Counted from the stretch's first letter, positions 4,995 through 62,991 are shown. The stretch is DNA of 64,000 nucleotides from an uncultured Gemmatimonadaceae bacterium (GCA_963829055.1 CAWHHI010000003.1:256001-320000); one strand, 5' to 3'. Notes: generated from the letters alone by a model not told the origin. Program-made: numbers and translations.

Positions 4995-5009
4995 GACGGG
5001 CAGTCGACG

Positions 5010-6149
5010 TTAGGCCTGAGACGTACGCGCAGGCGATGCTCGCCCGACGCGCGCCGGCAGCTCCACCACGCGCGCGCACCCAGCCCTGCTCGTCCGTCAG
5101 CTCGAACCGGTGCCGGCCCGGGAACAGCCGCACCAGCCGCTCCCGCACGTTCCGCACGCCGATCCCGGTCCGCCCGCGTTAGGCGCGCCTCGCCCGACTC
5201 GGCGCCACGCGACCGATGGCGCGGACGCGAGCGACCCCGTGTTCCACACCTCGACCCGCAGCACGCCGTCCGTCACGGCCGCGCGTCGAGACGCACGCGC
5301 AGCGGGCCGTCCCGGCATCTCGCGCGCCGTGCTTGATCGCGTTCTCCAGCAGCGGATGAATCAGAAATGCCGGGATCGCGCACGACTCCGCCGCCGGATC
5401 CACGTGCGTCTCGATCGCGAGCCGCTCCTCGAACCGGATCTGCTCGATCGCGAGATACCCGCGCAGCGCGTCGAGCTCGGCCGCGAGCGTCGTCGTCTCG
5501 AGCGCGCGCTCGACGAGCGCGTGCCGGAGAAACGCCGCGAGCTGCGTGACCATCTGCCGCGCGCGCGCGCGATCCTCGTCGATCATCGCGCGGATGGACG
5601 TCAGCGCGTTGAACAGGAAGTGCGGGTTGAGCTGGTACGCGAGCATCTGCAGCTGCGCTTCCTGCGCGAGTCGCCGAGCCTCCGTCGCCTCGCGCTCGCG
5701 CTCCTGCGACCGTCGCCAGACGAGCACGCCGAAGTACGCCGCGCTCCACACGAGAAACGCGAACACGAACTCCAGGATCGAGCGCGGCATCGATCGTCGG
5801 CTCGAGGAAGATCGCGAACGACGGCTGGAGCCCGACGCCGACCATGATCGCCGCGTGCAGCGAAGTAGCCGACGAACCCCGCCGCGACCGACGCGACCAG
5901 CGCGATCGCCGCGACGCGCCCGCTCACCTCGGGCTCCGTCACGACGCGCCGATACAGCCAGAGGAGCCCGAGGCTCACCACGATGCCGACGAGCGCGCGG
6001 AGCTCCTTGTTCACGAACACCGCGAGCCGGCGACCCGGCTCCATCGATGGCAGGAACGTCAGGAACAGGCTCGACGCGTAGGCCGTCCACCCGCCGATCT
6101 GCGCGAGCCAGAACCCGGCACGAGACGAGAGTGCCCGCACGGCGCCCAA
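5010..6149 (-). CDS. LytS/YehU-family sensor histidine kinase (frameshifted)
   Basis: N-terminal TM helices; QLNPHFLFNALTSI, YLAIEQIRFEERL, LLENAIKHG. Confidence 0.9.
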
Positions 6150-6150
6150 C

Positions 6151-6626
6151 TTACTTCTTCTTCAGCTCGACGTATGAAGATCTTGTTGATGATCTTCCAC
6201 TCGCCGTTCGTCTTGAGCAGCGACATGTAGTCGACGATGTGCGCGTCCGGATAGTCGAGCACGATCTTTCCGATCGCCGCGTTGCCGGTGACGTCGACGA
6301 TCTCGATGCTGCGCTTCCGGACCCCGGTCGCCTCGTCGGCCGCTGGCTTGCCCGGCATCCGCGCGATGTATTCGTCGACGGTTCGCGTCGCGAGCGTGTC
6401 CGCGCTCGACCAGAAGAGCCGCGCCGGCGGGGTTGAAGGCGAGACGCATGTGCGCGCCGTCGCCCGTCGCGTGCCCCTGGATGTAGTGCTCGAGCGCGGC
6501 GCGAACAGCGACTTCGTCGGGTGTCGGCGCGGACATCCAGGCACCGCCAGCGAACAGCGCGGCCGCAACGGCGGCGCAGAGAACGCGTCGCGACGAAAGA
6601 CCCTTTCCGGTCAGGACAGACGACAT
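6151..6626 (-). CDS. Secreted NTF2-fold (Lumazine_bd_2-type) protein
   Basis: AVRAALEHYIQGHATGDG..AFNP, IEIVDVTGNAAIGKIVLDY..DYMSLLKTNGEWKIINK. Confidence 0.8.
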
Positions 6627-6740
6627 GGACCAGCCTCCGATCGAGTTCGGACCATGCCCGGCGGCCGAGCGTCCGGCGCGTTATGGGCGATGGTGGAGGC
6701 GAACGATCGGGGTCGCGTCGGCTCTGACGAAATAGATTCT

Positions 6741-6794
6741 CGCCCGAGCGGTGGCATCGTCGCGCCGAGCGGTTGGCACGAGCGCCGAGTGGTT
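6741..6794 (-). promoter_or_regulatory. Candidate LytTR-type direct repeats
   Basis: CCGAG(C/T)GGT at 6744, 6765 and 6785 (21/20-bp period) upstream of the NTF2-kinase-regulator operon. Confidence 0.55.
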
Positions 6795-6984
6795 TACGCC
6801 TATACGGCTGGACGAGTGTCCGGTTTGATGCTCGGCGAGCCGTTTCTGGGTAGGGCACGACCCTTCGGTCGTGCAACGCTCGCGTGATCGACGCCAACAT
6901 CCGCGGCTTCCGGGTTCCAGTCTGGTGTCCGATATTCGTGCGCCGCCGCGGCTGACCCAAACGAAATCGAGTAAGGAGAGGACA

Positions 6985-8359
6985 ATGACAACTAATGCGC
7001 ACTGCAGGTCTCTCGGGCCCGTCATTCGGCAGCGGGACTCAGCGGGACCGTCATCCGTCGCGGCGACGCCGACTACGATCAGGCACGCCGCGTGTGGAAC
7101 GGGATGATCGATCGTTCGCCGGCGATGATCGTGCGCTGCAGCGTCCACCGCCGATGTCGTGGCGGCCGTCAACTTCGCGCGCGAGGCAGGGCCTCGTGCT
7201 CTCCGTCCGCGGCGGCGGTCATAACGCGGCGGGCTTCGCGCGTCGTGCGACGACGGTCTCGTCATCGACCTGTCGTCCATGCGCGCGTGACGGTCGACCC
7301 CGGCGAGCGAATCGCGTCCGCGCAGGGCGGCGCGCTGTGGCGCGACCTCGACGCGGCGACGCACGCGCACGGCCTCGCGACGACGGGCGGCGTCATCTCG
7401 AGCACCGGCGTCGGCGGCCTAACGCTTAGGCGGCGGTCTCGGCTGGCTCATGCGCAGCACGGCCTGGCATGCGACAACGCTCGTCGCCGTGGAGATCGTG
7501 ACGGCCGACGGCACCGTCCGGCGCGCCAGCGCGACCGAGAACGCGGATCTGTTCTGGGCGGTTCGCGGCGGCGGCGGCAACTTCGGCGTCGTCACGACGT
7601 TCGAGTTCCGGCTGCACCCCATGAGCACGCTGTACGGCGGCATGCTCGTGTATCCCGGTCGCGCGAGCGCCGCGAGGTGCTTCGCCGTACCGCGACCTGG
7701 CGGCGAAGGCGCCCGACGAGCTGACGATGTTCGCCGGCCTCATGACGTCACCCGATGGCACGCCCATCATGGCGGTCCTCGTCGCGCTACAACGGCCCAG
7801 CCAGCGCCGGCGAGGCGGCGATCAAGCCGCTGCGCGACCTCGGTCCGGTGGCCGATCAGGTGTCGGACGATCCCGTACCCGGCGCTGAAGTCGATGCTCG
7901 ACGACGGGTTCCCGTCACGGATTGCACGTCTACTGGCGCTCCGACTTCCTGAAAGGCGCTGCCTGACGAGGCGATCGACACGCTGGTGCGAGCGGTTCTC
8001 GTCGATCACGTCACCGCTCTCGGCTCTGTTGATCGAGCAGTTCGGCGGCGCGGTCGCCCGCGTGCCGGCCGACGAGACGGCGTTCGCGCAGCGCGATGCG
8101 ATGTTCAACCTCGCGGTCATTGCGCGCTGGACTGATCCCGCGACGGCCGGTTCGCACGTGGACTGGGCGCGCCGGAGCGAGCGAGGCGATGCGTCCCTTC
8201 GCGTCGGGCGGGGTGTACGTGAACTACCTCGGCGACGAGGGCGAGGAGCGTATCCGGGCTGCGTACGGCGCCGAGAAGTACGCGAAGCTCGTGGCGATCA
8301 AGAAGCAGTACGATCCGACGAACCTGTTCCGGCTCAATCAGAACATCAAGCCGTCGTGA
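6985..8359 (+). CDS. FAD-binding oxidoreductase, berberine-bridge (BBE) type (frameshifted)
   Basis: AAGGAGAGG RBS; WNGMIDRSPA, SVRGGGHN, DLFWAVRGGGGNFGVVT, YVNYLGDEG..KKQYDPTNLFRLNQNI. Confidence 0.9.
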
Positions 8360-8388
8360 TGGGAGGCGCGGGAGCGCGTTAGGTACAC

Positions 8389-8515: not shown

Positions 8516-8707
8516 AGTGGGCCGACGTTAGGCACCGGGGGAAACGGCTAGAAGTCAGGATGCTGTTCGCATATCAGCGGGGAGGCCCTCTACGGGGTCT
8601 CCCCGCTGGCCGTTCGTCCGCGCGAACCCTACGTTCTTGAGGGACCAAGAGAGCGCCATGGTCGGCGCAACGAGCCCGCCCCGCACCAGTATTCTCCCAG
8701 AGACTTC

Positions 8708-11700
8708 ATGATCAGAGGTCGTGCCATGCTGAACCGGCGCATCCGCCTCGCGCTCCGTTCGATCGTTCCCCTGGCCCTCGGCGCCGCTACGGCGCTCCCG
8801 GCCCAACAGCCCGCCGCACGACCAGTCGCGACGCGAACGGCTGCGGCCGCCAACAGCGCCACTCGCGCGGCCCCGTTCACGGCGCCGATCGACCTCGCAA
8901 TGCTGTCCGGGCTTCGCTACCGAAGCATCGGGCCGGCCCGCGGCGGACGCGTCACGACCGTCACCGGCGTGCCGTCGCAGCCTTACACGTTCTACATGGG
9001 CTCGACCGGCGGCGGCGTGTGGAAGACGATCGACGCCGGCCAGACGCTGGGTCGAACGTCACCGACGGGCAGATCGGCGTCGGGTCGATGGGCGCGATCG
9101 ACGTGTCGCAGTCCGACCCCAACACGATCTACATCGGCACCGGCTCCGATGGCCTCCGCTCGAACGTCTCGATCGGCGACGGCGTCTACAAGTCCAGCGA
9201 CGCCGGAAAGACCTGGACGCACATCGGACTCACGCGACGTCGGGCAACATCGGCGGCGTTCGCGTGCATCCGTCGAACCCGGACATCGCGTTCGTCGCGG
9301 CCATCGGCAACCCGTTCAAGCCTAACGCCGACCGCGGCGTCTTCCGCACGAAGGACGGCGGCAAGACGTGGCAGAAGGTGCTGTTCGTGTCGGACAGCAC
9401 CGGCGCGGTGGACGTCGAGTTCCAGCCCGGCAACCCGAACGTCATGTTCGCCGCCATGTGGCGCGGCGAGCGCAAGCCGTGGACGATCATCTCCGGCGCG
9501 CGCGAGGGCGGCATCTACCGCAGCACCGATGGCGGCGACACCTGGACGAAGGTCACGAACGGTCTACCTAACGAGCTCGTCGGCAAGGCGAACATCGCCG
9601 TCTCGAACGCGAACCCGAACCGCGTCTATGTCCTGATCGAGGCGAAGCCCGGCAGCGGGCTCTATCGCTCCGACGACGGCGGCCAGTCGTTCCAGGTCGC
9701 CAGCACGTTCGCGCAGATCATCACGCGGCCCTTCTACTACACGACGATCACCGCCGATCCGAAGAATGCCGACGTCGTGTACGCCGGCTCCGAGGGATAC
9801 TTCCGCTCGAGCGGATGCCGGAAAGACGTGGCAGCCCATGCGCGTCCCGCACGGCGACAATCACGACATGTGGATCAATCCGAACAACTCGGACATCATG
9901 ATCCAGTCGAACGACGGCGGCGCGAACGTGTCGATCAACGGCGGCCGCACGTGGAGCACGCAGTACAATCAGCCGACGGCCGAGATCTATCAGGTGTACG
10001 TGGACAACCAGTTCCCGTATCGGCTGTACGGCGCGCAGCAGGACAACTCCACGCTCATCGTGCCGAGCCTGCCGACGTCCGGCGGACGCCCGGATGACCC
10101 GATCCAGTCGTGGCGCACCGGCCCGGGCTGCGAGACCGGTCCCATCACGCCGCACAACGACGAATCCCGGACACGGTCTACGGCTCGTGCAAGGGACAGT
10201 TCTCGCGCATGGCCTGCGCACCGGGCAGGAGAAGCAGTACTGGGTCGGCGCGCAGTCGCTGTACGGCAACCCGGGCAAGGACCTCATCTACCGCTTCCAG
10301 CGCGTGTCGCCGATGGAGCTGTCGCCGAACGATCCGCGCACGATCTACTACGGCTCGCAGTACGTCCACCGCACGCGCGACGAAGGCGTGACGTGGGAGA
10401 AGATCTCACCGGACCTCACGGCGAACGACCCGAAGTATCAGGACAAGCCCTCGGGCGAGCCGATCACGATCGACGTCACCGGCGAGGAGTACTACAGCGT
10501 CATCTACGCGATCGAGGAGTCGCCGCTCGAGCCGGGCGTGATCTGGACCGGCTCGAACGACGGGCCGTTCTACGTCACGCGCGACAACGGCAAGTCGTGG
10601 ACGAACGTCACGCCGAAGAATCAGCCGCCTGGCTGCCGCGTGCAGAGCATCGACCCGTCGCCGCATCGCCGAGGCTCGGCGTACTACTCGGTGCTGTGCT
10701 ACCAGCTCGGCGACTTCCAGCCGTACATCTGGCGCACGGATGACTACGGCAAGACGTGGACGCGCCTGACGGACGGCACGAACGGCATCCCGAACAACCA
10801 GCCGACGCGCGTGGCGCGCGAGGATCCCGACCGCGAGGGGTTGCTCTACGCGGGGACGGAGTTCGGGATGTTCGTGTCGTTCGACAACGGCAAGAAGTGG
10901 CAGTCGCTGCAGCTCAACCTGCCGGCGACGCCGATCACGGATCTCAAGATCCACAAGAAGGACCTCGTCCTGTCCACGCAGGGCCGGTCGTTCTGGATCC
11001 TGGACAACCTGACGCCGCTGCATCAGATGTCCGACGCGATCGCCGTCCGTCGGCGACGCTGTTCAAGCCACGCGACGCGTACCGGTTCCGCTACACCGCG
11101 GGCTTCGGCGGCGTCGAGTCGACGAGATCGAATCCGGCCGATCCGCAGTATCCGCCGGCCGGCGCGATGATCGACTACTGGCTGCCTAACGGCGCGACGG
11201 GGCCGGTGACGCTCGAGGTGCTCGACGGCAGCGGCACGGTGATTCGCCGGTTCTCGAGCGACGGCGCGGGCGAGCGGGAGCAGACGCCCGACCAGCCGGG
11301 CATGCGTGCGCCCGGAGATGGTCACGGTGGGCACGCCGCGTCTCCGGAACGTGCCGGGCCTCAACCGCTTCACGTGGGACCTGACGCTGGCGCCGCCGGT
11401 CGACCCGAGCCGTCAGGGCGGCGGTGGTGGCGGCTTTGGTCGCAGCCAGCGGCCCGGTCATCGTGCCGGGCAACTATACGGTGCGGCTCGCCGCCGGCGG
11501 CAAGACGATGACGCAGCCGCTCACGGTGCTCATCGATCCGCGTGAGGCGAAGGATGGCGTCACGATCGCCGACCTGCGCGAGCAGTTCCAGCACAACATG
11601 CAGCGTCCGCGACATGGTGACCGAGGTGAACCAGCTCGTGGCGACCGTCGAGAGCGCGCGCCAGCGCCTCAAGAACGCGACGGGCGCGCGGCGGACACGC

Positions 11701-11921
11701 TGCGCAAGCTCGACGAGCTGCACGCGAAGGTGGTGACGGCGGCGATCCGCTACAGCAAGCCGGAGTTGCAGGCACACATCCAGTACCTGTACTCCCTAAC
11801 GACGCAGGCGGATCAGAAGATCGGCCGCGACGCGGTGGAACGTCTGCGTGTGCTGCGCACCGAGCTGGACCAGCGCCAGTCGGATGTGCGGGCGTTGTTA
11901 GGCGCGAAGGTGGTGCAGTAG
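8708..11921 (+). CDS. Large secreted BNR/Asp-box (VPS10/sialidase-like) beta-propeller protein, putative glycosyl hydrolase (frameshifted)
   Basis: [12 protein letters not shown], repeated SxDGGxTW boxes, [44 protein letters not shown]. Confidence 0.85.
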
Positions 11922-12140: not shown

Positions 12141-15100
12141 TCACCGATCGCCAACAACCCGATAGAACCGGACCGCCGACCGTCGATTCTCAGCGTAGCT
12201 GAGCGTCATCGACCACCCCGGTCCCGCCCGCACTTCCGACGCGAACTGACCGTTAGGCGGTAGCGCGATCCTCGTCAGGCGTCGCGTCGTCAGGTCAACG
12301 AGAACGACATCGCGCTTGTACGTCATCGACGTCGCGCGGAGTCCCGGCCCCAGCGCCACCACACCGAGGTCGCGTGACGAGAGCCTTGCGATCTCCGTCG
12401 CCACCCCCGCCGCGCTCACGGAGTAGAGCGCAGTCCCGCTCCGCCGCTGCACCGAACACGCCGCCGCCCCGCCACTCGGCTGGCCACACTGCGTGGCACC
12501 CTGGAGTGTCGCCACGTGACGCACCGTGTCGCCGTGCACCCTGAACAGATCGGTGTGGAATGCGTCTATCCCGCTGACCATCGCCCATAACGAGATCGGA
12601 GTCGCACGCAGCCGGTTCGCGATACGTCGGCACGATCACCGCCGACGCCGAGCCGAAGACGATCGGCTCACCCACCATCGAGATCGTGTCCGGTATCCCC
12701 GCGCGCCGCGTGGCGCCGTGCTCGCCGATCTTCCCCATCACGACAGCCGTCCGGTCGTTGTCGAGGTCTTCGCCGATGACGCTCCACGTCCCCGTGTCCC
12801 GCTCGAGTGTGAGACGCGGAGCCAACAGCTCGAGATCGGCGATCGTGTCGGTCCAGATGGGCGGACCGCCTCCGTCCACGCGTTCGAGTCGCAGCGCCAC
12901 GCCGCGCTCGAGGACATCGAGGAGCAACATCCGCTCGTCGTCCACGAAGTCACCGGCGACCGCCGCGAGCTCGCGTAATCCCCCTCCCCACCGACGCGGC
13001 CCGCGAGAAGCACCTGCGCGGGACGGGCGGCCGCGCGCCGCACTGACGGGGCTCTGAGCACGAGGAAGTGCTTCCCATCCGGCGACACGCGAAGCCCCTG
13101 CCCCGCACCACCGAGATCCGTCTCCGACACGAGCGCCGCCCGCGCCGTGCCCTCAGCGAGCGCCTCGCGGTGCGTCCACACCGAGCGATCCACGCCCACC
13201 GTCGCGGCAGCTGAGGCGGCGACGATGGCGGCGAAGGCTGCCTGACGACTCCGGGGTGTTTGCAGCCGTGAAGAGCGCCGCCGCAAGGCCCGCCAGCGCC
13301 GTCCCTAACGTGCCGAAGATCGGCGCGCCGACGATGGACGCCTCCGGCATCTGCACGATCTCCCACGCCGTGATGAGCGCGACGGCCGCGGCCAACGCCC
13401 CGAGCACGCGCAATGTCAGACCCAGATGATCCCGGCCGCGCCCCGCCTTCACGAGGCGACTTGCGAGGTAGATCGCGACCACGCCGAGCACCGCCATGGC
13501 CACGAGCCCGAGGCGGGCGATGTCCTCGTCGAACCCGCCGCTGCCTTCCAGCCAGCCGAGGATCGCTCGCGCGATGCTCATGGCTCCGAGCGCCGCGAAC
13601 GCGGCCGGAGCGGGTTTCCACAGCACGATGAAGAGGGGAACCAGCACGATCCCCGTCTGCCCGGCGAGCACGCTGACGAGGAACGCGATGATCGCGACGG
13701 GCTTCGGCGCGACCCTCGTCGGCGCGGGAAGGACCTTGCCCAGCTTCAGGTCGACGATATCGAGCGTGCGCTGAACGCGCGCGACGTCCTCCGCGGCGAG
13801 CGGCACGGTCCACGCGTCGCCACTCCGCGTGCGCGCGGCAATCGCCCTCGCGTCCCCCGCGGCGGTCACGCGCAACTCGGCGAGGTCGGCGTAGTTCACC
13901 GCCCGGTAGCTCGACGCGGCCTCGCGCAGCGTCGCCAGATCGGCGGCGGTTCCCTCCGGCACGCCGTCGAGCCAGTACGAGCGCGCGTGGTCCAGCACGA
14001 CCCAGCTGCCGGGTCGCGTCGAGCGGATCGCCGTCGCCGCGTCGAGTTGTTCGGTGGCGCTGGGAGCGCCCGCGCGAATGGCCTGAATGCGCCGGACCAG
14101 GCTCGGGTGCGTCGACGCCCGCTCCATGTCCACCGCATAACGACGCGGGATGCGGGCGTGCAGATGCAGTTTCACGAGGGCGCGCACCAGCGCTTCCGGA
14201 TCGCCGGACAGCGCGGCCGCACGCAGGTCGCTCTCCGTCTCGTGCTGCTGGCTCTTCGCCGCGCGACGAACGAGCGCCGTGAGCACGAGCAGAGGCCACA
14301 GCCACCCGATCCACCCCTCGGCCGATCCGACCTGCGCCGCCGGCATAACGAGTGGCAGCACGAGCGGCAGCGACACCCCGATGCCGATGAGGGCCCGGTT
14401 GATGAGTTGCGAGCGCCTGACGCGGCGGGGCGTCAAATGGTCGAAGTGCGCGATCTCGTGCGCGAAGATCGCCGTCGCCTCGTCGGCGTCCAGAAGCTCG
14501 AGCAGTGCCGTGCCCAGGGCGACGGACGGCTGACGGACCGACGGCAGCGCCACCGCGTTCACGAACCGCGATCCTTTGGGTCCCACGCGATACACTCGGG
14601 GAGTGACTGTGCCCGCTCGCCGGACGATCTCCTCGAACCTCGGCGTGAGCTCGGGGCTCACGAGCGGCTCGCCCGCGTGCGCCCAGAGCCAGATGCGCGG
14701 ATACCACATCTCCCACGCGATCAACAGCGCGGCGAGCGCCGTCGCCAGCACCACGGCGAGCCAACGCCGCTCCCCGCCCATGCCTTCCATAACGCGGCGC
14801 ACGAGACTCGGCGCGTACGCGAGCGCGATCCAGAAGCCGAAACCGCCCGCCACGGAGATCGCCGTGTGCCAGAGGTAGGCGCCAAACCCCCACGTTTCGC
14901 CGAGCAGACGCGTACGCAGCGGATACGCGACCGCGATCATCGAGACGATGAGCAGGGGAATCCCCCACGCCGAGCTCGCGCCGCCGAACATGATCATGAC
15001 GACGATGGCGAACGCGATGGTCGCACGTTCGCGCGACGGCGGCTGGCCAGCAGCTCGGGCAGTGCCGGGTCGTCGCGCTGCTGCAGGGCGCGCCGGTCGC

Positions 15101-15194: not shown

Positions 15195-15430
15195 TTAACG
15201 CCTGTGACGCGAGGCATCGGCTTGCTGGCGCATAACGACAGCGAAGGACCGTTGCTGACGAATGATGCCACGGAACGTTGCGTCCGAACGTTTCTGAACG
15301 TTGCGGATGGCTCCCGCGTTATGACAAGGACCGCCTTGTCGTCGCGACCCGAGTCGATGGCTTTCTAAACGTCAGGTTAACGACGAACGGTCAGGAATCG
15401 TCTGGTGCCCGTTAGGCTGTTAGGCAGATG

Positions 15431-16622: not shown

Positions 16623-17818
16623 ATGACCTCCCGACTCTACTATACGGACGCCTACCTCACCGCCTTCGACGGACGCATCACCGAGATCTCCGCCGACGGG
16701 CAGCCGCGTGTATCTCGACCGAGACCGCCTTCTACCCCGCGTCAGGCGGCCAGCCGTTCGACCTCGGCTCACTGGGCGGCGCGCCGGTCGCCGACGTCGT
16801 CGACGAGGACGAGCGCGTCGCACACGTGCTCGCCGCACCGCTGTCCGGCCGCGCGGTCGGTGACACGGTGCACGGCGAGATCGACTGGCGGCGGCGCTTC
16901 GATCACATGCAGCAGCACACGGGGCAGCATCTCCTGTCGGCAGTGTTCGCTGACCTCTTCGGCTACGAGACGGTGAGCGTGCACTTCGGCGCCGACCGCT
17001 CGTCGCTCGATCTCGACGTCGGCGCGATCGACGCCCAGCGCGTTAGGCGAGGCCGAACGTCGCGCGAACGAGATCGTGTGGGAGAATCGACCGGTGAGCG
17101 TGAGCGTTCGAGGAGTCCGCCACGGCCACGGGTCTCCGGAAGCCGCCGCCGCGCGAAGGGACGCTCCGCGTCGTGACCATCGAGGCGCTCGACCGCAGCG
17201 CGTGCGGCGGCACGCACGTGCGCGCCACGGGCGAGATCGGCGCCATCATGCTGCGCGGGACGGAGCGCATGCGGAAACAGACGCGGGTCGAGTTCCTCTG
17301 CGGCGGCCGCGTGATTCGTCAGGCACGCGCCGACTTCGAAACGCTGTCCGCGATCGCGCTCTCGCTCAAGGCGTCGGCGCCGAAGCACCTGCACTCGTGG
17401 TGGCGCAGAGCGAGCAGCTTGCGCGACGCGCTGGCGGCGCGCAAGCGCCTCGAAGGCGAGCTCGCCGTGCACAAGGCTCGGGCCCTGTACGACATGCCAC
17501 GCGCCGACGCCGGCAGGCGTGCGCGTCGCTGTAGTGCGACGCGACGCCGGCTCGCTCGAGGAGATGCGCCCGTTCGCGCAGGCGTTCGCTGCGTTGCCGC
17601 AAGGCGGCGTTCGATCGCGGCGATCGCATCGCCCGCCGACGGTGCTCGTCGCCGCATCGGAAGACTCGGGCGTCGATGCCGGCGCCGTACTCAAGGCTGG
17701 CACTGACAGCGGCCGGCGGTCGCGGCGGCGGCTCGCCGCGGCTCGCGCAGGGCACCGTTCCTAACGCGGACGCGCTCGAGCGCGGTGGTGCGCGTCCGTG
17801 CAGGCAGCGTTCGCGTGA
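16623..17818 (+). CDS. AlaX-like alanyl-tRNA editing protein with DHHA1-type C-terminus (frameshifted)
   Basis: MTSRLYYTDAYL, TAFYPASGGQPFDLG, RRFDHMQQHTGQHLLSA, CGGTHV, GGRGGG. Confidence 0.88.
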
Positions 17819-43390: not shown

Positions 43391-43427
43391 TATCTTCGGT
43401 ACATCCACTAACGAAGGCTTGCCTAAC

Positions 43428-43455
43428 GTCGGGCACGGAATCACCCGTGCCCGAC
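43428..43455. terminator. Intergenic hairpin
   Basis: gtcgggcacgg-aatcac-ccgtgcccgac. Confidence 0.5.
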
Positions 43456-46153: not shown

Positions 46154-47344
46154 CTAGTCGCTCGTCATGATGAACAGCGGCGCTCCATCGAACTCGTAGA
46201 TCGGCCGCAGCCGCTCCGTGTTGTAGTACTTCGGCACGTCCACGACCTTCTTCTCCGACGTCACGCTCGTGATCGGCACGCTGTCGTAGAACCCTTTGTG
46301 GATGCTGACGAGTCGTCCGTACTGCTTCTTGAGGATCAGGTCGAGCGCGAGATTGCCGAACGCCATCGGCACGATCGAGTCGAGCGCGTCGGGGTCACCC
46401 GAGCGAACGAGGTAGCCGAGCCGCTGGTTCACGACGTCGATGCGACGGCCGTTGTTGTACTTCGGCGAGTACTCCTTGAGCGCCGCGGCGACCTTGTCGC
46501 CAATGCCCGCCGAGCTTGCGGTGGCCGAACATGTCCACGTCCTCGCCCTCGAAGCTCATCCCCTCCTGCGACGTTAGGCGCGCCCCTTCCGACACCAGCA
46601 CCACGGAGTAGCGGCTCGGGTTGCCGATTGCGGTCGTACGTCAGCAGCTCCGCCAGATGCTCGACGTCGACGGCATGCTCGGGGATGACGCAACGGTCGG
46701 CGGCGCCGGCCATCGTCGGGAGCAGCGCGGTGAAGCCCGCGTACCGGCCGAACACTTCGATCACGAGAAAGCGCTCGTGCGAGCCGGCCGACGTGCGCAG
46801 GCTGTGCGTGAGCTCGATCGTGCGCGTGACGCACGTGCTGAAGCCGATGCAGTAGTCGGTGCCGTAGACGTCGTTGTCCATCGTCTTCGGGATCGCCACG
46901 ACGTTCACGCCCTCGTCGTGCAGTCGCTTGCCGTAGCTCAGCGTGTCGTCGCCACCGATCGGGATCAGCGTGTCGACGCCGATGTGCTCGAGGTTCTTGA
47001 GAACGTCCTTCGTGATGTCGTTGACCGTGTCTGTCGTAGCCGGTCAGTGCTGCGGCACGCGCTCTCGCGGCAGATGGCTCGGCCGCGTGCGCGACGTGTG
47101 GAGGAACGTGCCGCCGGTGCGACCGGCGCGGTTCACGATCGCCTCCGACAGCTCCTGCACGTTGTCGGTGTTGTCGGCGCCTTTCTCGCGCTCGTAATCC
47201 ACGAGCCCGGCCCAGCCGCGCCGGATGCCGACGCACGCGGTAGCCCTCGCGCAGCGCGCGGATCGTGATGGCGCGGATCGCCGGGTTGAGACCTGGCACG
47301 TCGCCGCCACCGGTCAGTATCGCGATCGTCCCCTTATCTGACAT
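46154..47344 (-). CDS. pfkA: 6-phosphofructokinase, PfkA family (frameshifted)
   Basis: [51 protein letters not shown]. Confidence 0.92.
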
Positions 47345-50122: not shown

Positions 50123-52833
50123 TCAGTCGCTCCGCAGCGCGACCATCGGGTCCACGCGCGCGGCGCGGCGCGCGGGAATGAGACACGCACCGATCGCCAC
50201 GAGCCCGAGCAGCGTCGGGACGGCAATGAACACCGCCGGATCGTTCGGCGTCACGCCGAAGAGGAATCCGGCCAGCACCCGGCTCGCGCCGAGCGCGCCG
50301 ATGATGCCTAACGCCACGCCGGCGGCCGCGAGCGTGCCGCCTTCGCGCAGCACCATCCCGAGCACGTCGCGTCGCGCGAGCGCCGAGCGCCATGCGGACG
50401 CCGATCTCGCGCGTGCGCCGCACGACGGCGTAGGCCACCACGCCGTAGATGCCCGACGGCGCCAAGGGTAAGCGCCACCGCCGCGAACGTCGCCAGCAGC
50501 AGCATCGTGAAGCGCGCTCGCGCGGCGGAGTTGGACACGAGGTCCTCGAGCGGCCGCACCGCGTTCACGGGAACGTGGGATCGACGGCGGCGACGGCGCC
50601 GCGAAGCCGCGACGTGAGCGTCGCGAGAGATCGCCCGTCGCCGCGCACCACGAGCGTCATCTGCGTCGGAGAAGCTGAACCCGGCGATGTCTCCCCATCG
50701 GGAGATACACGCTCACCTCCCCGGCGCTGCTCAGGCTGTCACGCTTCACCGTCCCGACGACACCCGACGACCGTCATCCACGACTTCACCCAGACCGGCC
50801 GGAATCGCTGGCCGATAGCGCTCGGCGTTAGGCCAGAGACGCCGGGCGGTGAGCTCGTCCACGAGCGCGACCGCCGGATGCACCCGATCGCGATCCGCCG
50901 CGCCGAAGCCTCGTCCGCGAAGGAGCGGAATGCCCGATCGTCTTGAAGTAGTCGTCGCTCACGACGGTGCGCACGAGCATCGGTGCCGAGCGCGCCCGGC
51001 GGCAGCGGGATTCGCCTCGATGCTCGGACGCGAACGAGCTCTGCATGCTGCCCGTCGCCACCGAATGGCAGCACGCTCGCGACGGCCGCGGACGTCACGC
51101 CCGGCATCGTGCGCGCCCGCTCGAGCACCGCCTCGTAGAACGCCGTGCGCGCGCACCGCGGTGTCCGACGGGAAGCTCGGAATCGGAATGTCCGCCGCGA
51201 TCACCTGCTCGGGACGAAAGCCCAGCTCGACCTGGTGCAGCCGCCAGAAGCTCTTGATGAGCAGCCCCGCACCAGCGACGAGCACGACGCCGAGCGCGAT
51301 CTGCGCGACGACGAGCCACTCCGAGAGTCGGCGCCGCGCGAGACGTGCCGCCCGCATTGCGCGTGGCACCGAGCACCGCCTGGAGCGTCGGCCGTGATGC
51401 GCGGAGTGCCGGCGCGAGCCCGAACGTCAGGCCCGTCGCGAGCGCGGTGACCATCGTGAACGCGAGCACGCGCAGTCGATCGCGACTTCGGTGACGCGCG
51501 GCATGCCGGCCGGCAGCAGCAGGAGGAGCGCGCGAACGCCAGCCGCCGCCGACCGCCGAGTCCGAGCGCGCCACCGACGCAGCGCCGAGCATGACGCTCT
51601 CGGTGAGCAGCTGCCTAACGATGCGACCTCGGCCGGCTCCGAGCGACGCGCGGATCGCGATCTCGCGCTCGCGCGCGGCCGCGCGACTCAGCAGCAGGTT
51701 CGCGACGTTGACGCAGGCGATGAGCAGCACGACCGCGACTGAGCCGAACAGCACGACGAGCATCGGCCCCACGTCACCCATCGACCTTGCGCTCGAGCGG
51801 CACGACCGTGACGCCCGTCCCCCACGCGTCCGGCATCCGCCACGGGAACGACGCTGCGGCTCCGGTCCACGAGCATGGCGATCTCCTGCTCGCGCCTGCG
51901 CTAACGCTCACGCCGCGCCGGAGCCGGCCGATGACGTTGAGGTGACTCGTGCCCCAGTACCGGACCGATGTTCGCCGGCGACGCGTCGAGCGACACCGGT
52001 ACCCAGAAGTCGACTGCCGGCGACGGAAAGCGGAAGCCGCCGGCATGACGCCGACGACGGTGCGCGCGATGCCATCGACGATCACTGATCGGCCAATGAC
52101 GCTCCGGTCGCCACCGAAGCGCTGCTGCCAGAGCGCGTGCCCGAGCACGGCGACGCGGTCGCGGCCCGGCAGGTCCTCGCCCTCGAGCAACGTGCGGCCG
52201 ACCTCCGCCGTCACGCCGAGCACGTCGAAGAAGCGGCTCGTGACCTCGGACTGCACGAGGCGCGCCGGCTCCGACTGCGCCGGTCATGCTCACGGCGACG
52301 TACCACCCGAATAGCCGGCGATCGGCATCGAGCGTCCGCGTCCCGTCGCGCACCTCGCACGAACACGCCCGGCATCATGGCGCCCTCGGGCCACACGCTG
52401 ACGAGCCGATCCGGGTCGGCGTACGGAAGCGACTTGAGCAGCGCCGCGTCGACGACCGAGAAGATCGCCGCGTTGGCACCGATGCCGAACGCCAGCGTGA
52501 GGACGGTGATGACGAGGAAGGACGGACGGCCGTGGCAGCGCGCGCGTGGCGAAACGCACGTCCTGCCGCAGCGCCTCCCACCAATCCGCGCGGCGCTCGC
52601 GCTCGACGCGACCGCGATCGATCGCCGCGATCTCGTCGCGCGCGGCGCGGAGGTCACCGAACTCCGTGCGCGCCTGCGCTTCGGCTGCCTCGACGCGTGA
52701 GGCCGCGCGACATGAGCACCTCGATGCGCGTCTCGACGTGGAACGCGAGCTCGTCGTCGACCTCGCGCTCCACGTCGCGCGACGCGCCGCCGGCTGGCGC
52801 AGCAATTTCCGAATACCGGATCCCAGATCTCAT
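50123..52833 (-). CDS. Second ADOP-type duplicated ABC permease (heavily frameshifted)
   Basis: [74 protein letters not shown]. Confidence 0.9.
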
Positions 52834-54070: not shown

Positions 54071-54075
54071 GTCCG

Positions 54076-55390
54076 TTAGGCGCCAGGCCCGAACGGATCC
54101 TCCAGCGACGGACTCTGCGGCGTCATGAGCTCCGCGCCGTCCGCCGTGATGATCATGTCATCCTCGAGCCGCACGCCGAACTCACCCGGGATGTAGATCC
54201 CCGGCTCATCGCTGAACGTCATGCCCGGCTCGAGCTTCTGCGTGTTGCCCTTCACGAGGTACGGCCACTCGTGGCCGTCCATGCCGATGCCGTGGCCGAC
54301 GCGATGCGTGAAGTACTTGTAGCCCGGGCCGAAACCGGCGTCGACGATGACCTTTCGCGCCGCGGCGTCCACCGCCTGACATTCGACGCCCGGGCGCGCG
54401 GCCTTGAGCGCCGCCGTCTGCGCCTGGTGCTCGATGTCGAACACCTTCTTCATCCGATCCGTCGCCTTGCCTAACACGAACGTGCGGCTGATAGTCGGAG
54501 TTGTAGCCCTCGACCTGGCAGCCGCCGTCGATGAGCAGGATCGTTCCCGGGCGGATCACCTGCGGCGTGACCGATCCGTGCGGGAGCGCGGAGTACTCGC
54601 CGACCTGCACGCCGGCATCACCGCGGTAGCCGAGTCGCTGGTGCGCGGCCGACGACGAAGCCGGCGAATTGATTCTGGGTCATGCCATCGGCGAGCGACT
54701 TCCACGCCGCCTCGTACGCCTTGAGCGTGACCGCGCTCGCGTGACGCATGAGCGCGAGCTCGGCGTCGGACTTCACGCCGCGACAACCGGCGGTGACGGG
54801 CGTGCCGCTCGTCAGGCGGAGCGTCGGGCAGCGCCTTCGCCACGTTGTCGGAGAAGACGAAGCGCACCGTCTCCTCGATGCCTAACGTGCCGGTCGCGAG
54901 CCCTCGCGACCGGAGGCCGTCGGCGATCAGCGCGGACGGGCTCTCGTCTTCCTCCCACGTGTGGACCTCGGTGCCCTTGTCGAGCGGACCCGTGCGCACC
55001 TGCTCCATCGCGCCGCTCTTCCTCGAACTTCGGGCAGACGATGAACGGCGTGCCTTTCACCGGAAGGATGAGCGCGAGCATGCGCTCGCTCAGGCCCCAG
55101 CGGATGTTCGTGAAGTACTCGCATCGACGTGCCGCCCGTGAGCATGAGCGCGTCGATCTCTGTTCTCCGCATGAGGCGCGTCGCCTTGTCGATGCGCGCG
55201 CGCCGCTCCTCGACCGTGATCGGCTTGACGCCCGCGGTCATCGGCTTGAGCGCGGCGATCGCCGGTGGCAGCGTGCCACCCTGATGCGGCCTCGTCCGTG
55301 AGCGACGGCGTCGGCGACGGTGGCGCGGGCGGCGGTGGCCGCACAGCGCGGCGGCGTGCTGGTGCCGAGGAAGGTGCGGCGGGTAGGCAT
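54076..55390 (-). CDS. M24-family Xaa-Pro peptidase with Tat-like signal (frameshifted)
   Basis: TRRTFL; LIDGGC..GYNSD, FTHRVGHGIGMDGHEWP, FSDEPGIY..GVRLED. Confidence 0.92.
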
Positions 55391-56037: not shown

Positions 56038-59000
56038 ATGCCCAACCCAGATCCGCTTTCCGTTCTCCGTCACGCTCGCGCTGCTCGTCCTCGGCTTCGG
56101 TCTCGCCGCATCGCCGCGCAGGGCTACGACCCATCGCTCTTCCAGGAGATGCGCTGGCGGATGATCGGACCGTTCCGCGCCAGTCGCACGAAGGCCGGCA
56201 CCGGCGTGCCGTCGCAGCCGAACGTGTTCTACATCGGCGTCGTGAACGGCGGCGTGTGGAAGACGACCGACTACGGCCGCACCTGGGACCCGATCTTCGA
56301 CGAGCAGGGCACCGGTTCGGTCGGCGCGATCGCCGTCGCACCGTCGGACCCGAACATCGTCTACGTCGGGAGCGGCGAGGGACTGCAGCGCCCCGACCTC
56401 TCCGTCGGCGACGGCATCTACAAGTCCACCGACGCCGGGAAGACGTGGACGCACCTCGGCCTTCGCGACGGACAGCAGATCCCGCAGATCATCATCGACC
56501 CGCGCGACCCCAACCGGCTGTTCGTCGCCGTGCTCGGCCATCCGTACGGGCCTAACGCGGAGCGCGGCATCTTCCGCTCGACCGACGGCGGCCGGACGTT
56601 CGAGAAGGTGCTGTACAAGGACGAGAACACCGGCGGCATCGACGTCGCGTTCGATCCGCAGAACGCGCAGACCATCTACGCCGTGCTGTGGGAAGCTCGT
56701 CAGGCGCCGTGGGAGAACGGCGCGTTCAGCGGGCCGGGCTCCGGAATGTTCAAGTCCACCGACGGCGGCACGACGTGGCGTCAGATCGGCCAGGGACTGC
56801 CGACGTTCGACCGGCGATGGACTCGGGCGCATCGGCATCGGCATTGCGCCGAGCCTGCCGAGTCGCGTGTTCGCGACGGTGGATGCGGCGCGGAACGGTG
56901 GGTTGTATCGGTCGGACGACGGCGGCGAGACGTTCACGCAGGCGACCGAGCGATGCGCGCGTCGTGTCGCGCGCGTCGGACTTCGCCGAAGTGAAGGTGA
57001 GTCCGAAGAATCCGGATATCGTGTTCACGGCGAGCGTCGTCGCGTGGAAGTCCACCGACGGCGGCAAGACCTTCTCGGCGCTACGCGGCGCGCCCGGCGG
57101 CGACGACTATCACCGATTCTGGATCAACCCCGACAACCCGGACATCATCCTGCTCGATCGCCGACCAGGGCGCGGTGATCACGCGTGAATGGCGGCAAGA
57201 CGTGGAGCAGCTGGTACAATCAGCCGACGGCGCAGATGTACCACGTGATCCACGGACAATGCGTTCCCGTACCGCGTCTGCAGCGGGCAGCAGGAGTCGG
57301 GCTCCGCGTGCGTGCTGAGTCGCAGCGACAACGGTCGCATCACGTTCATGGATTGGCATCCGGTGTCGGTGGAGGAGTACGGCTACGTCGCGCCGGACCC
57401 GCTCGACCCCGACATCGTGTACGGCGGCAAGGTGACGCGTTATGATCGCCGCACGGGTCAGGTGCAGAACGTGGCGCCGAAGCTGTCGCGGTCGCCCGAC
57501 TATCGCGCGCTGCGCACGGCGCCGCTGCTGTTCTCACCGGTGAATCCGCGGAAGCTGTACTTCGCGACGAACACCGTCTGGCAGACGACGAACGGCGGCC
57601 AGAGCTGGCAGGAGATCTCGCCGGACCTCACGCGCCGCGACTCCGTCGTGCCGCCTAACGTCGGCAAGTATTCCGGAGGAGCGCGGCGCGACAGCGCGGC
57701 ATCCGGGCGTGGTGTACACGCTCGCGCCGTCGTACGTGAAGGAGAACATCATGTGGGCCGGCAGCGACGACGGGTTGATCCACGTGACGTTCGACGGCGG
57801 CACGACGTGGAAGGACGTGACGCCACCGGCGCTCCGGACACGTCCGTGGAGCAAGATCTCGATCATGGACGCGTCGCACTTCGATACGCTCACGGCGTAC
57901 GCGGCGATCAACACGCTGCGTCTCGACGACATGCGTCCGCACCTCTACCGCACGCGCGATGGCGGAAAGACGTGGACGGAGATCGTCGCCGGCATCGACT
58001 CGGGCGCGATCACGAACGTCATCCGCGAGGACCCGAAGGCGCGCGGGCTGCTGTACGCCGGGAGCGACCGTCAGGTGTGGGTGTCGTTCGACGACGGCGA
58101 TCACTGGCAGTCGCTGCGGCTGAACATGCCGGCGCACGTCGATCCGCGATCTCGTGATCAAGGACGACGACGTGGTGATCGGCACGCATGGGCGGTCGTT
58201 CTGGATTCTGGATAACGTGACGCCGCTGCGACAACTCGGCAGCGGGACTGGGGACTGGGGACTAGCGGGAACTCGACGGGAAGCTGCCGGCGTCTAGCTT
58301 CCCGCAGTCCCGAGTCCCCAGTCCCCAGTCCCGCTTGTTCAGACCGCAAACAGCCACCCGAATCCGGTACAGCCAGTGGCCCGACACCCCACTCCCGCCG
58401 GACGAGCCCGCGGCGGAGAATCCGCCGGACGGCGCGATGATCGACTACGTCATCGGCACCGGCGGCGCCGGCGGGAAGCCGGTGACGCTCGAGATCCTCG
58501 ACGGCACGACGGCTCGTTAGGCGGTACGCGAGCACCGACACCGCCATGGCGCCCGCCGACATCGGCAACGTCCCGCGCTACTGGATCCGCCCCACGCAGG
58601 TGCTGTCGGCCGAGCCGGGCATGCACCGGTTCGTCTGGGACCTGCGCTACCCGGCGCCCGGCGTCCTCAACGTCCAGTACCCGATCTCGGCCACGCCTAA
58701 CAACACGCCGCGCGAGCCGCGTGGACCGTGGGTCGTGCCAGGCACGTACACGGTTCGCCTCACGGTGAATGGCCAGACATACACGCAGCCGCTCACCGTG
58801 CGCATGGACCCGCGCGTGAAGGCGTCCGCCGCGACGCTCGCGCGGCAGTTCGCACTGTCGAAGGGCGTCTACGACGACATCAACCGCACGCGAGGCGTGC
58901 TCGACGAGCTCCGCACGCTGCGCGCGAACCTCCGCGAGCTTCGAGGACGCGCGACCGGCGACTCACGGCCGCGCTCGATTCGATCGATCGTGCCGCCGCC

Positions 59001-60643: not shown

Positions 60644-60907
60644 ATGGCCATGCTCGTCAACCCAAGCGAAAGCGGGAGCGGTAACGTGGCGGAAACCGTT
60701 GCCGCGGGTATCGCGTGCGGCAGCTGCGGCACCATCCTCCCGGCGGAGTGGGCGAGTGAGCCGCGCGACCAGCGCTCTCCCTGCCCCAAGTGTCGTGGCA
60801 CCCAGCGTCGGACGGCGTTCGCAAAGAGCGCAACAAGCGCCGAGCCCCAGCGCCCGCCCGGCCTACTCGGGTGGATCGGGAAACTGATACGGCGGGGGCG
60901 GGGATGA
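60644..60907 (+). CDS. Small zinc-ribbon protein
   Basis: CGSCG..CPKC; amphipathic tail GLLGWIGKLIRRGRG. Confidence 0.6.
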   Translation: MAMLVNPSESGSGNVAETVAAGIACGSCGTILPAEWASEPRDQRSPCPKCRGTQRRTAFAKSATSAEPQRPPGLLGWIGKLIRRGRG

Positions 60908-61127
60908 CGCGCGCGCCAGCCGGACCCTAATAAAGCGCGACGCCATCGTGCTGGCCGTCTTCTTATTCGACGTATGGGCCGTCGATCTCGCGCTCAGTAA
61001 GCGGAACTGTCGCCGCGAGGGCGGCACGCCTGTCGTGAGCGATGCCGCGGTGGTTTGCCTCCGACCGGGTGGTGTGCCTAACGGGTTCGTGCCGGCGGTG
61101 CCTACCGCCAAGCGGGGGCGGGGATGA
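60904..61127 (+). CDS. Small hypothetical protein (needs one indel fix)
   Basis: ATGA-coupled at both ends; ..IVLAVFLFDVWAVDLAL..NCRREGG..VVCLRP..KRGRG*. Confidence 0.5.
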
Positions 61128-61651
61128 GAATTTGGGCCGTGCTCGGCGCGACATTGGCGATCGCCTGCGCGGATGGCGCAACGGCTCCGGGCGACGTACG
61201 CGGCACGTTTCGAGTTACCGTCAGCAACGCTATCGCGCGCGACGTCTCCGGAGTGGCGAGGTACTTCGTCTTCAGTGAAGGGGCGTCCTCGACGTATCGA
61301 ATCGAGTTGGCGGAGACGAGCGCCGTTAACGGGTTTTGGCTCACGATTGCGGGCGACGGCGCCCGCCCGCCCGTGGGCACGCACGCGATTATGCCCGGAC
61401 CAGGCGCGTCCCCGCAGGCGCCGACGGTGATCGCCGCGGCGTGTGCGGACCGCTCCCAGCGCTGCTTTCCCGCTTGGAGGGTAGCGTCGTCGAGCGGCGG
61501 CGCGGGCCGGCTGGAGATCGCCCGGTCGGCGGCGGGCGGTTTAGCCGGTAGCCTCGAGGTCGACCTGCTCGGCGAGGGAGATTTCTCCGGCGAGACGCTT
61601 CATGTATCGGCAAAGTTCAACGCGGCCTGCGAGCCGCCGGCGTCGTGCTGA
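61124..61651 (+). CDS. Hypothetical lipoprotein
   Basis: MRIWAVLGATLAIAC lipobox; beta-rich; intact ORF. Confidence 0.7.
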   Translation: MRIWAVLGATLAIACADGATAPGDVRGTFRVTVSNAIARDVSGVARYFVFSEGASSTYRIELAETSAVNGFWLTIAGDGARPPVGTHAIMPGPGASPQAPTVIAAACADRSQRCFPAWRVASSSGGAGRLEIARSAAGGLAGSLEVDLLGEGDFSGETLHVSAKFNAACEPPASC

Positions 61652-61732
61652 ACTTCTCGGAACCGAGCGCCGAACCCCAGCGCCCGCGCGGCTTATTGCG
61701 TGGATCGCGAGATTTATGCGGCGGGGGAGCGG

Positions 61733-61957
61733 ATGACACACCCGTTCACCGCGCCTAACGGCACCGTGTTCTACCATAACGCGGGCTACTCTGGCGACAT
61801 GCATATCGTGCCCGCGGTCGGTGAGCCGTCTGTCGAAGTGCCGATCGACGACCTAGTGGCCTTCGTCGCGCACCTCGTGACCGACCGGCGCATCGATGGG
61901 ATGCGCGCCGACATCGAGCTCGGCGAGCTGCTCGAGCGGAAGCGGGGGCGGGGATGA
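61733..61957 (+). CDS. Small hypothetical protein
   Basis: MTHPFTAPNGTVFYHNAGYSGD..ERKRGRG*. Confidence 0.6.
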   Translation: MTHPFTAPNGTVFYHNAGYSGDMHIVPAVGEPSVEVPIDDLVAFVAHLVTDRRIDGMRADIELGELLERKRGRG

Positions 61958-62616
61958 CCAGTTCGTGGCGCGTGCGCCGCGGCGCCTCACTGCTCGCCGT
62001 GCTCGCCGGGGTCGTCACGCTCGCGACGTTCGCATGGCAGCCGGCCGCGGCGACCCGCAGCACGGCCCGCACACATCGTCAATGGCACAACAAGCCGGGA
62101 TGGGCCCCGCCGCTGTTCCGGGAGCCGGTTCAGGGTGTGAAGGTCGCCGGGCAATGCACGTTTCCGACCTACGACGAGGTTGCCCGGAAGCACCCCGAGC
62201 TCGCGGCAACAATCGGCGAGGACGACACGGAGACGTGCGCGGGCGTCATGTACTTCGGCGACTGGGCCGGAGAGCTCGAGCGGCTCGAGAGAAGTGCGAT
62301 CGAGAACGGGGCGCGCACGGACACAGTTCGCGCCGCGAGGCTCGACAGGTAGCGCGCCAGCGTGCGGCTACTCGCAAGGCCGAGCGATTGAAGCAATACC
62401 GAGCGCTAAGCCGGTCAGAGGGCGACATCGCCACCATCATGGCCGGCAAGATTCGCCTCGGATTTACAGCTCGCCAAGTTCGTGAGTCAATTGGCCGGCC
62501 TGAGCGGATCAACACGACAATCACCGGAAGCGGCACGCACGAGCAGTGGGTTTACGGAGACAACTACGTCTATGGTCGACAACGGGATTGTCACCTCAAT
62601 TCAGACCAGCCGTTGA
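61954..62616 (+). CDS. Exported hypothetical protein with SmpA/OmlA-like C-terminal motif (frameshifted)
   Basis: N-terminal signal; IRLGFTARQVRESIGRPERINTT..HEQWVY..NGIVTSIQ. Confidence 0.55.
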
Positions 62617-62991
62617 GAGCGCGCGTCGGTACCAGAGGTTAAGGGATTCAGTCGACACACAGCTCGTTCTTTATCCGCAAGCCGACACCCCTGGTCCGCG
62701 GCCAGCCTAACGATGCGCGAACGTTCTCCACCGGCGGCGCGATCTTCTGCGGGTTCGCATGGCGGCCGAAGGCATGAGCGCGCACGAGATGCGACCTCCT
62801 CATGCGCGGCCGGCCGCGGGAGCGGAAGTAACAAGAGACGATCGCCCGTCTACGGTCCGGGTCCCGACATTCGATGGGTCACACCTGACGTTAGGCGTGG
62901 CGGTTCTGTAGCGGCGGCTGGTACCCGGCCGCGTCTTCCCGCAGCAGTTCGATTGCCTACGAGCGCCACTCGTCGCGCTCGCAGGCTCGGC

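Follow-up and report, generated by a model that had tools for sequence, protein, structure and literature searches.

Why does one stretch of bacterial DNA repeat the same seven letters, CCTAACG, dozens of times on either strand? The stretch in question, hereafter the window, comprises 64,000 nucleotides from an uncultured Gemmatimonadaceae bacterium (GCA_963829055.1, CAWHHI010000003.1:256001-320000; in our numbering G000:C3:256001-320000), and belongs to a genome of 7.78 Mb in 20 contigs, with 66.7% guanine plus cytosine (GC) and a completeness of 85.9%. A sequence-only reading had counted about 56 copies by eye and proposed a selected or mechanistically generated signal at the level of DNA, uptake-like in density and strand symmetry, with a comparison to the highly iterated palindromes (HIP) of cyanobacteria. 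The tally comes to 57 exact copies, 29 on the plus strand and 28 on the minus strand, one of them (4637-4643) lying outside the range of that count; the 22 coordinates listed at the time are all real copies, to within one base where the leading G was counted. The heptamer is part of an eight-base word, GCCTAACG, with CCTAAC as its core. In its essentials the earlier interpretation is supported, apart from the HIP comparison, which is weak because the word is not palindromic: read from the sequence, it is not its own reverse complement. At a probability of roughly 45%, the word would be a tag similar to the DNA uptake sequences (DUS) of Neisseriaceae and the uptake signal sequences (USS) of Pasteurellaceae, accumulated by transfer-biased molecular drive, a candidate reader for it not having been found.

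The excess itself is beyond chance. One hundred dinucleotide-preserving shuffles of the window give a mean of 2.96 heptamers (standard deviation 1.71, maximum 7), and none reaches 57; over-representation thus stands, while the earlier expectation of about 7, drawn from base composition, was too generous. Over the genome, CCTAACG and its complement are found 3154 and 3237 times where an order-2 Markov model expects about 123 and 126, and the octamer 5004 times (2457 forward, 2547 reverse) for about 102 expected (50 and 52). This roughly 49-fold enrichment places both words at rank 1 among the 7-mers and 8-mers of the genome. A maximum-order Markov ranking does not flag the word, because its own sub-words hold the signal; 82% of all CTAA sit within CCTAA, and 96% of CCTAA within CCTAAC. 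The logo of the genome copies reads G-CCTAAC-G, with a preceding G in 79% of cases, a following G in 90%, and G or A favoured on either side. Beyond these eight bases the information drops below 0.2 bit, leaving flat flanks around a discrete octamer, and no longer conserved unit of the repetitive extragenic palindrome or miniature inverted-repeat transposable element (MITE) type appears in this flank profile. Variants at the end positions stay enriched (ACCTAACG 17-fold, GCCTAACA 15-fold), as do two internal ones, GCATAACG at 7.7-fold and, modestly, GCCTGACG at 2.1-fold. The former makes a second spelling, G-CATAAC-G, with 956 cores in the genome and a flank profile like that of the main word; in the window, CATAACG occurs 17 times for 1.9 expected.

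Protein coding does not account for this abundance. The 4915 genes called with confidence contain 2940 copies, where shuffling of synonymous codons leaves 132 (a 22-fold excess) and shuffling of codon order 63, so that the excess survives the codon-aware null that the earlier reading had put forward. Its remark on rare codons is borne out in the same gene set, where CG-TTA-GGC accounts for 1205 of the 2567 TTA codons. Sites fall in several frames: of 5002, 1326 read xCG-TTA-GGC, 895 CCT-AAC, 608 CTA-ACG and 423 GTT-AGG, 121 lie in the two stop-containing frames at gene ends, and 1629 (32.6%, compared with 28.9% of 5000 random positions) are non-coding or ambiguous; these counts are approximate, and come from local frame scoring because the frameshifted assembly lowers the coding share of the gene map. 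A word present in genes, in several frames, and in spacers as well must therefore act as a signal at the level of DNA. Three-base periodicity passes through it in phase, hence it neither adds nor removes bases.

The placement of the word along the chromosome is just as telling. Density is even across all 20 contigs, at 0.48 to 0.80 copies per kb. The largest word-free stretch (G000:C6:6854-55038, 48 kb, 70.1% GC) holds a second trp operon, a chorismate mutase and a peptidase M17. Congeners offer nothing above about 72% identity to it, and the genome has a trpB of its own on C16. The lack of a close match and the second operon point to horizontal import or to a chimeric contig join. A second word-free stretch covers 37 kb (G000:C11:7377-44055). 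As for strands, C16 has 111 of 269 copies (41%) in forward orientation over its region of positive GC skew, and 209 of 396 (53%) over that of negative skew. Chi, the FtsK-orienting polar sequences (KOPS) and the SpoIIIE recognition sequences (SRS) are strongly strand-skewed on each replichore and just few-fold enriched; strand use of the present word does not track replichores, and the absence of Chi/KOPS-type polarity suspected from the window alone is confirmed. Close neighbours are rare: gaps between cores of at most 100 bp make up 3.1% of the total where 8.8% are expected, with fewer in all four orientations, and those of at most 200 bp 7.8% where 16.8% are expected. Past about 500 bp the gap distribution is near-exponential, with a coefficient of variation of 1.13.

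The individual copies in the window are these (ORF, open reading frame):

4637-4643, minus strand: word copy (CCTAACG), exact match
5008-5014, minus strand: word copy; a short frame that lies just upstream of a response-regulator ORF stops at its TAA
5177-5183, minus strand: word copy; gives the TAA ending the assembled His_kinase ORF 5179-6090 (minus strand)
7418-7424, plus strand: word copy; CTGAC in congeners at this site
8377-8383, minus strand: word copy, exact match
8526-8532, minus strand: word copy, exact match
9321-9327, plus strand: word copy, exact match
9567-9573, plus strand: word copy; ACCTGACG in G002 at this site
11185-11191, plus strand: word copy, exact match
11795-11801, plus strand: word copy; pairs in inverted orientation with the GTTAGG of 11897-11902, but the fold reaches a z of only -2.0, no clear attC
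12251-12257, minus strand: word copy, exact match
13304-13310, plus strand: word copy, exact match
15410-15416, minus strand: word copy, exact match
17041-17047, minus strand: word copy, exact match
17760-17766, plus strand: word copy, exact match
20158-20164, plus strand: word copy, exact match
20645-20651, minus strand: word copy, exact match
20690-20696, minus strand: word copy, exact match
21485-21491, plus strand: word copy, exact match
21747-21753, minus strand: word copy, exact match
22347-22353, plus strand: word copy, exact match
24119-24125, plus strand: word copy, exact match
25487-25493, plus strand: word copy, exact match
25755-25761, minus strand: word copy, exact match
26690-26696, plus strand: word copy, exact match
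27597-27603, minus strand: word copy, exact match
27814-27820, plus strand: word copy, exact match
30832-30838, plus strand: word copy; 0 differences in a contig of public run X1
32139-32145, minus strand: word copy, exact match
32361-32367, minus strand: word copy, exact match
35515-35521, minus strand: word copy within ftsH; core at the equivalent site in G001-G005 and L001-L006
35917-35923, plus strand: word copy; gives the ftsH TAA stop; GCCTGAC (TGA) in G005 and L001-L004
36943-36949, plus strand: word copy; retained in G005
37612-37618, minus strand: word copy; retained in G005
37799-37805, plus strand: word copy; retained in G001, G002 and G005
39806-39812, plus strand: word copy, exact match
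39991-39997, plus strand: word copy, exact match
40983-40989, minus strand: word copy, exact match
41544-41550, minus strand: word copy; retained in G001, G003, G004 and G005
42153-42159, minus strand: word copy, exact match
43422-43428, plus strand: word copy, exact match
45209-45215, minus strand: word copy; gives the TAA of ORF 45211-45825 (minus strand), the N-terminal fragment of a frameshifted GFO/IDH/MocA oxidoreductase gene
46572-46578, minus strand: word copy, exact match
48657-48663, minus strand: word copy, exact match
49308-49314, minus strand: word copy, exact match
50307-50313, plus strand: word copy, exact match
50826-50832, minus strand: word copy, exact match
51614-51620, plus strand: word copy, exact match
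54074-54080, minus strand: word copy; gives the TAA stop of the peptidase M24 ORF 54076-54477 (minus strand)
54881-54887, plus strand: word copy, exact match
56551-56557, plus strand: word copy, exact match
57654-57660, plus strand: word copy, exact match
58515-58521, minus strand: word copy, exact match
61077-61083, plus strand: word copy, exact match
61754-61760, plus strand: word copy, exact match
62706-62712, plus strand: word copy, exact match
62889-62895, minus strand: word copy, exact match

Could these copies be created by sequencing or assembly, or be polar signals after all? An eight-base non-palindromic word does resemble KOPS and Chi, and genes split by frameshifts are numerous in the assembly (DHOR, peptidase M13, a GFO/IDH/MocA oxidoreductase, MacB/FtsX, M24). 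Such splitting suggests the indel errors typical of long-read assembly and fits a completeness of 85.9% in 20 contigs; contigs of other runs differ from the window by one-base indels at 30087/30090 and 36604. The frame-split genes of the window lie at 25057-26597 (DHOR, a di-haem oxidoreductase), 44532-45825 (the GFO/IDH/MocA oxidoreductase), 47571-49627 (M13), 51095-52256 (MacB/FtsX) and 54076-54477 (M24). Both explanations deserve next to no weight and are already refuted. For polarity, the strands are balanced (2457 against 2547), and the C16 shares on the two sides of the GC-skew switch are those just given. For an artefact, the three-base periodicity runs on undisturbed, and the word is found in contigs of relatives and of independent public runs. 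By its FtsH the organism belongs to the Gemmatimonadaceae; the nearest relatives by this protein, 85-88% identical, come from other metagenome-assembled genomes (MAGs) built with MEGAHIT or SPAdes, and their short-read contigs hold GCCTAACG 1 to 6 times per 4.6-7.9 kb, including, in four of six relatives (L001, L003-L005), at the ftsH site equivalent to window 35515. All seven genomes searched in the same genus, g1 (G000-G006), carry 2501 to 5112 copies. Sixteen studies of rhizosphere, soil and sediment contribute 20 public runs with near-identical DNA, and contigs of four public runs match the window at about 98-99%. One of them covers 30654-30916, with the copy at 30832, without a single difference, and among the 40 differences listed, out of 256, none falls in a word. 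A basecalling artefact is excluded because short-read relatives and contigs of other public runs have the word, which is what the earlier reading had asked of relatives. Three congeners have CCTAAC at places where the window reads CCGAGC; that the latter might be a modified site miscalled was considered and rejected: these are in-frame synonymous swaps, and CCGAGCG is equally common in word-poor genomes, which also counts against it.

Comparison with congeners tells how the word comes and goes. With G001, G002 and G005, whose DNA is about 82% identical, 33 of 44 site-by-genome comparisons retain the core (three related genomes and about 17 sites, so that comparisons are not independent), while other 6-mers are kept in 19050 of 55192 (34.5%); by this measure the word is retained once present. 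Gains and losses are also seen, with 11 cases in which the window has the word and the relative does not, and 26 of the opposite kind. Six such sites have a clear frame, and each shows a synonymous difference: TTA against CTC or CTG, GTT-AGG against GTG-CGG, CTA against CTG. The word therefore arises in place, by point changes neutral for the protein. Stop codons follow the same trend. The ftsH ORF (34041-35921) ends in a TAA within the word in the window, L005 and L006, and in TGA (GCCTGAC) in G005 and L001-L004. Of three genes said to take their TAA from the word, ftsH and M24 do so (words 35917-35923 and 54074-54080); the kinase at 5010 does not, since this region is frameshifted and that stop closes a short frame only, the His_kinase ORF 5179-6090 (minus strand) ending in the next word, 5177-5183.

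Another possible origin is modelled on HIP1 (GCGATCGC), the palindromic octamer of cyanobacteria found about once per kb, tied to a methyltransferase and of unsettled function. By analogy, the present word would be a DNA methyltransferase target, and a linked short-patch repair bias would convert near-matches into it. Abundance is of the right order, at about one per kb as for HIP1, and the two adenines of the word could make a non-palindromic methylation site. Yet such a bias should empty a neighbour of the word. Those with one mismatch at positions 2-7 stand at 0.2 to 0.8 of an expectation itself inflated by the word, no single one being specifically depleted, and GCCTGACG reaches 2.1. Orthologous non-word alleles, moreover, differ at two positions simultaneously, where a bias in single-mismatch repair fails, and the word is not a palindrome. 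We find this account very doubtful.

Across the family the word is far from universal. We surveyed 301 Gemmatimonadaceae genomes of at least 80% completeness, from 68 genera, calling rich those with at least 300 copies, intermediate those with 120-299 and poor those with fewer than 120; 85 are rich (up to 7821 copies), 8 intermediate and 208 poor, a range of three orders of magnitude. Six unpublished genomes, five poor and one intermediate (G021, G043, G089, G236, G251, G273), enter the tallies only. Five sampled poor genomes stand near chance, the expectation being the order-2 value of their own 80-kb sample, scaled up; in the poor genome G059, 17 copies are observed for about 17 expected. 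Genus g49 is mixed, with six species at 3244-4141 copies and four at 4-66. In 80-kb samples of rich or intermediate genera (g5, g40, g73, g70, g62), G-CCTAAC-G is the first or second 8-mer, and in such samples of the poor genera g51, g52, g32, g16 and g31 no other hyper-abundant word, or dialect, was found. G-CATAAC-G (GCATAACG) is present in g1 and g73, with scarcely any in the rich genera g40, g70 and g62. In a quick single-gene tree of FtsH, a second rich lineage, L008, does not group with the g1 clade; poor lineages separate the two, which hints weakly at several losses of the word or at its having been gained more than once. Near ftsH, two Gemmatimonadaceae MAG loci, L017 and L016, repeat octamers of their own, AGGTGCTC (14 in 7.7 kb) and ACCTCGAC (10).

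A word on both strands, with depleted close pairs, orientation-independent spacing and strong retention between species, might be the site of a lineage-specific chromosomal protein, nucleoid-associated or condensin-loading, bound about once per kb under weak selection at each site. More than 5000 selected exact sites, however, fit poorly with free turnover (26 cases against 11), gaps are near-exponential past 500 bp (the coefficient of variation of 1.13 again), many closely related genera have chance-level counts, and a candidate protein was not found. Such a role seems quite improbable.

Thousands of copies could hardly be held by selection on local function, which makes transfer-biased drive the most likely origin. 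The copies use disfavoured codons, are symmetric in strand and with respect to transcription, are sparse close to each other, turn over between species while being strongly retained, and are absent from foreign DNA, a set of traits that DUS and USS are known for. The accepted account of DUS and USS is that DNA bearing the word is transferred with a bias and then recombines; the DUS of Neisseriaceae is read by the minor pilin ComP. On this model, the word would act as a double-strand DNA tag of this Gemmatimonadaceae lineage: DNA carrying it would be preferentially taken up by natural transformation, or passed between kin, and then recombined in. Synonymous changes creating the word would then spread, and second copies close to a first would contribute little. 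The genome has some of the machinery, with ComEC above its cut-off and a PilQ-like secretin at 258 bits for a cut-off of 284; six pilin-like ORFs were also found.

Several observations weigh against this tag. We know of no competence phenotype in this phylum. ComEC and the secretin are found equally in the word-poor species of g49, and no ComEA-type match was found in G000 (85.9% complete); as separators of rich and poor species within that genus, ComEC, secretin and ComEA all fail. An orphan pilin of 171 amino acids, considered as a conserved receptor, matches other rich genomes over residues 2-79 only, its N-terminal part, and was set aside. Inverted pairs of Neisseria DUS serve as transcription terminators; terminator-like inverted pairs of the present word are absent, pairs within 100 bp being depleted in every orientation. 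With one spelling in rich genera and no other word in poor ones, the dialect pattern of DUS is nearly absent, GCATAACG in g1 and g73 being the only variant. The gene map behind the frame counts is home-made and only 77% coding. Finally, the spelling of the word points to a recombinase at least as naturally as to an uptake receptor.

What this spelling matches, a point absent from the earlier note, is the most specific lead. An excerpt of PMC12901181 gives the consensus of integron attC sites as RYYYAAC for the R'' box and GTTRRRY for R', and the R'' box of attC_aadB as GCCTAAC. GCCTAAC fits the former and GTTAGGC the latter: the word is spelled exactly as an attC R''/R' box. We calculate that, if a hyper-abundant 7-mer were random, it would agree with the R-box consensus in one orientation or the other in about 0.2% of cases. 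The genome has an intI gene at C20:208041-208958, just at the TIGR02249 cut-off. Its attC hairpins, GCCTAACG...CGTTAGGC in form, cluster only at C20:163-205 kb, next to intI and at lower coordinates than it, with a further occurrence at 119 kb, which, as a sequence-based prediction, makes C20 the seat of a chromosomal integron. A second intI (C4:2862-3170) is truncated where congener orthologues are full length, at 354-367 amino acids; the thought that its product might be a stand-alone DNA-binding reader was rejected, as the gene is simply a damaged version of one that the genus normally has. Genomes of a sister family that are poor in the word contain it in few, strand-polarised clusters, which are cassette arrays: attC sites of about 90-136 nucleotides follow each other every 0.4-3 kb or so, bounded by GCCTAAC...CGTTAGGC, and the filter passes 15 hairpins on one strand of G015:C95 and 18 on the other, the corresponding numbers for G013:C3 being 7 and 7. 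Poor-genome arrays using the same box, the word is the cassette R box of the order regardless of chromosomal richness.

It is thus conceivable that IntI, or another tyrosine recombinase of R-box specificity, reads the word, chromosomal copies being half-sites at which cassettes could land, a sink titrating the enzyme, or sites of a recombinase-dependent conversion that spreads the word. Beyond the exact spelling, the intI gene with its adjacent hairpins and the arrays of poor genomes, this would agree with the ability of IntI to insert cassettes into chromosomes, reported in an excerpt of bioRxiv 10.1101/2022.09.11.507474; the same excerpt, however, has insertion at attG requiring just GWT. 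Of the 85 rich genomes 66 have IntI (E<=1e-40), and of the 208 poor ones 123, which does not separate the two states, and IntI was discarded as their discriminator. More than 98% of word copies are solitary, with no partner box, L box or hairpin; the flanks of chromosomal copies show no L box, whereas an attC site has two inverted boxes 50-150 nucleotides apart that fold, with L boxes, into an imperfect hairpin. Among 7102 cores, 77 pairs are attC-oriented and 63 control-oriented, and they fold no better, so that neither orientation nor folding supports cassettes scattered at chromosomal words. The enriched GCATAACG violates RYYYAAC, while the one-base variants that preserve Y, GTCTAACG and GCTTAACG, show no enrichment. 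Essential genes such as ftsH carry the word in frame and without indel, so that its copies are not insertion scars, and no known IntI reaction converts neighbouring bases. A recombinase as the reader is, all told, unlikely.

The uptake tag and the integron may nevertheless be linked, the R-box spelling suggesting that the specificity of the reader is tied to cassette sites, for instance through an uptake bias favouring cassettes. According to PMC12614218, DNA acquired by transformation is a source of cassettes for chromosomal integrons. From this finding we propose that an uptake or kin-transfer specificity for the attC end box might favour cassette import, out of a pool of cassettes shared in soil, and drive the box into the chromosome, a doubtful scenario as it stands.

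What would follow? Searches of the literature found no paper describing the word in Gemmatimonadaceae, in line with the earlier statement that no description was known for the lineage, and none joining Gemmatimonad- and uptake sequence; among the matches listed, octamers of the word turn up only in primers and constructs. To our knowledge, uptake-sequence-like words are established in just two proteobacterial families. If the tag is real, it would add a third, from a soil phylum that is abundant yet hardly cultivated, implying kin-biased DNA exchange there and offering a handle for genetic tools. If uptake is specific for the attC box, Proteobacteria would no longer be alone in having an uptake-sequence system, and uptake specificity would for the first time be tied mechanistically to integrons; the R-box identity suggests an unexplored coupling of DNA import and cassette capture. 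The contrast between rich and poor species of g49 makes the search for the reader directly approachable. Word density also serves, in these MAGs, to tell native DNA from DNA that is foreign or mis-binned, the 48 kb without the word, with their duplicate trp operon, being an example.

The window has other features of interest. An element of about 160 bp (39037-39195) is absent from contigs of three public runs, the joint being 39036/39196 with GTG between; it has a very high summed depth and many copies at 77-83% identity, on both strands, in G003 and G004, and looks like a MITE-like mobile repeat, putatively polymorphic between strains. Just downstream of ftsH (36619-37781), an Xre-like antitoxin (Xre_MbcA_ParS_C) is followed by a RES-domain protein, a RES-Xre toxin-antitoxin pair. 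FtsX/MacB-type permease genes lie at 20692-23018 and 51095-52256, one adjoining a PadR regulator, together with several BNR/Sortilin-repeat proteins.

How, then, does the word compare with known systems? Like Chi and KOPS/SRS, it is non-palindromic, eight bases long and over-represented; unlike them, it is unpolarised and about 50-fold enriched. With HIP1 it shares the status of a hyper-abundant octamer at about one per kb, differing by its asymmetry. With the R''/R' boxes of integron attC sites it shares exact spelling and fit to the published consensus, whereas, unlike attC and attG, its copies are solitary, in frame in ordinary genes, and of a richness that IntI does not track. From DUS and USS it differs in having 8 bases rather than 9-12, in lacking terminator-like pairs, in keeping one spelling over all rich genera sampled, in being without a conserved receptor that we could find, and in being spelled as an integron recombination box. 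It resembles them as a short non-palindromic word found about once per 1-1.5 kb, equally on both strands, in several frames and in spacers, restricted to part of its family, spaced more evenly than chance would have it, and accompanied by one minor, lineage-limited variant.

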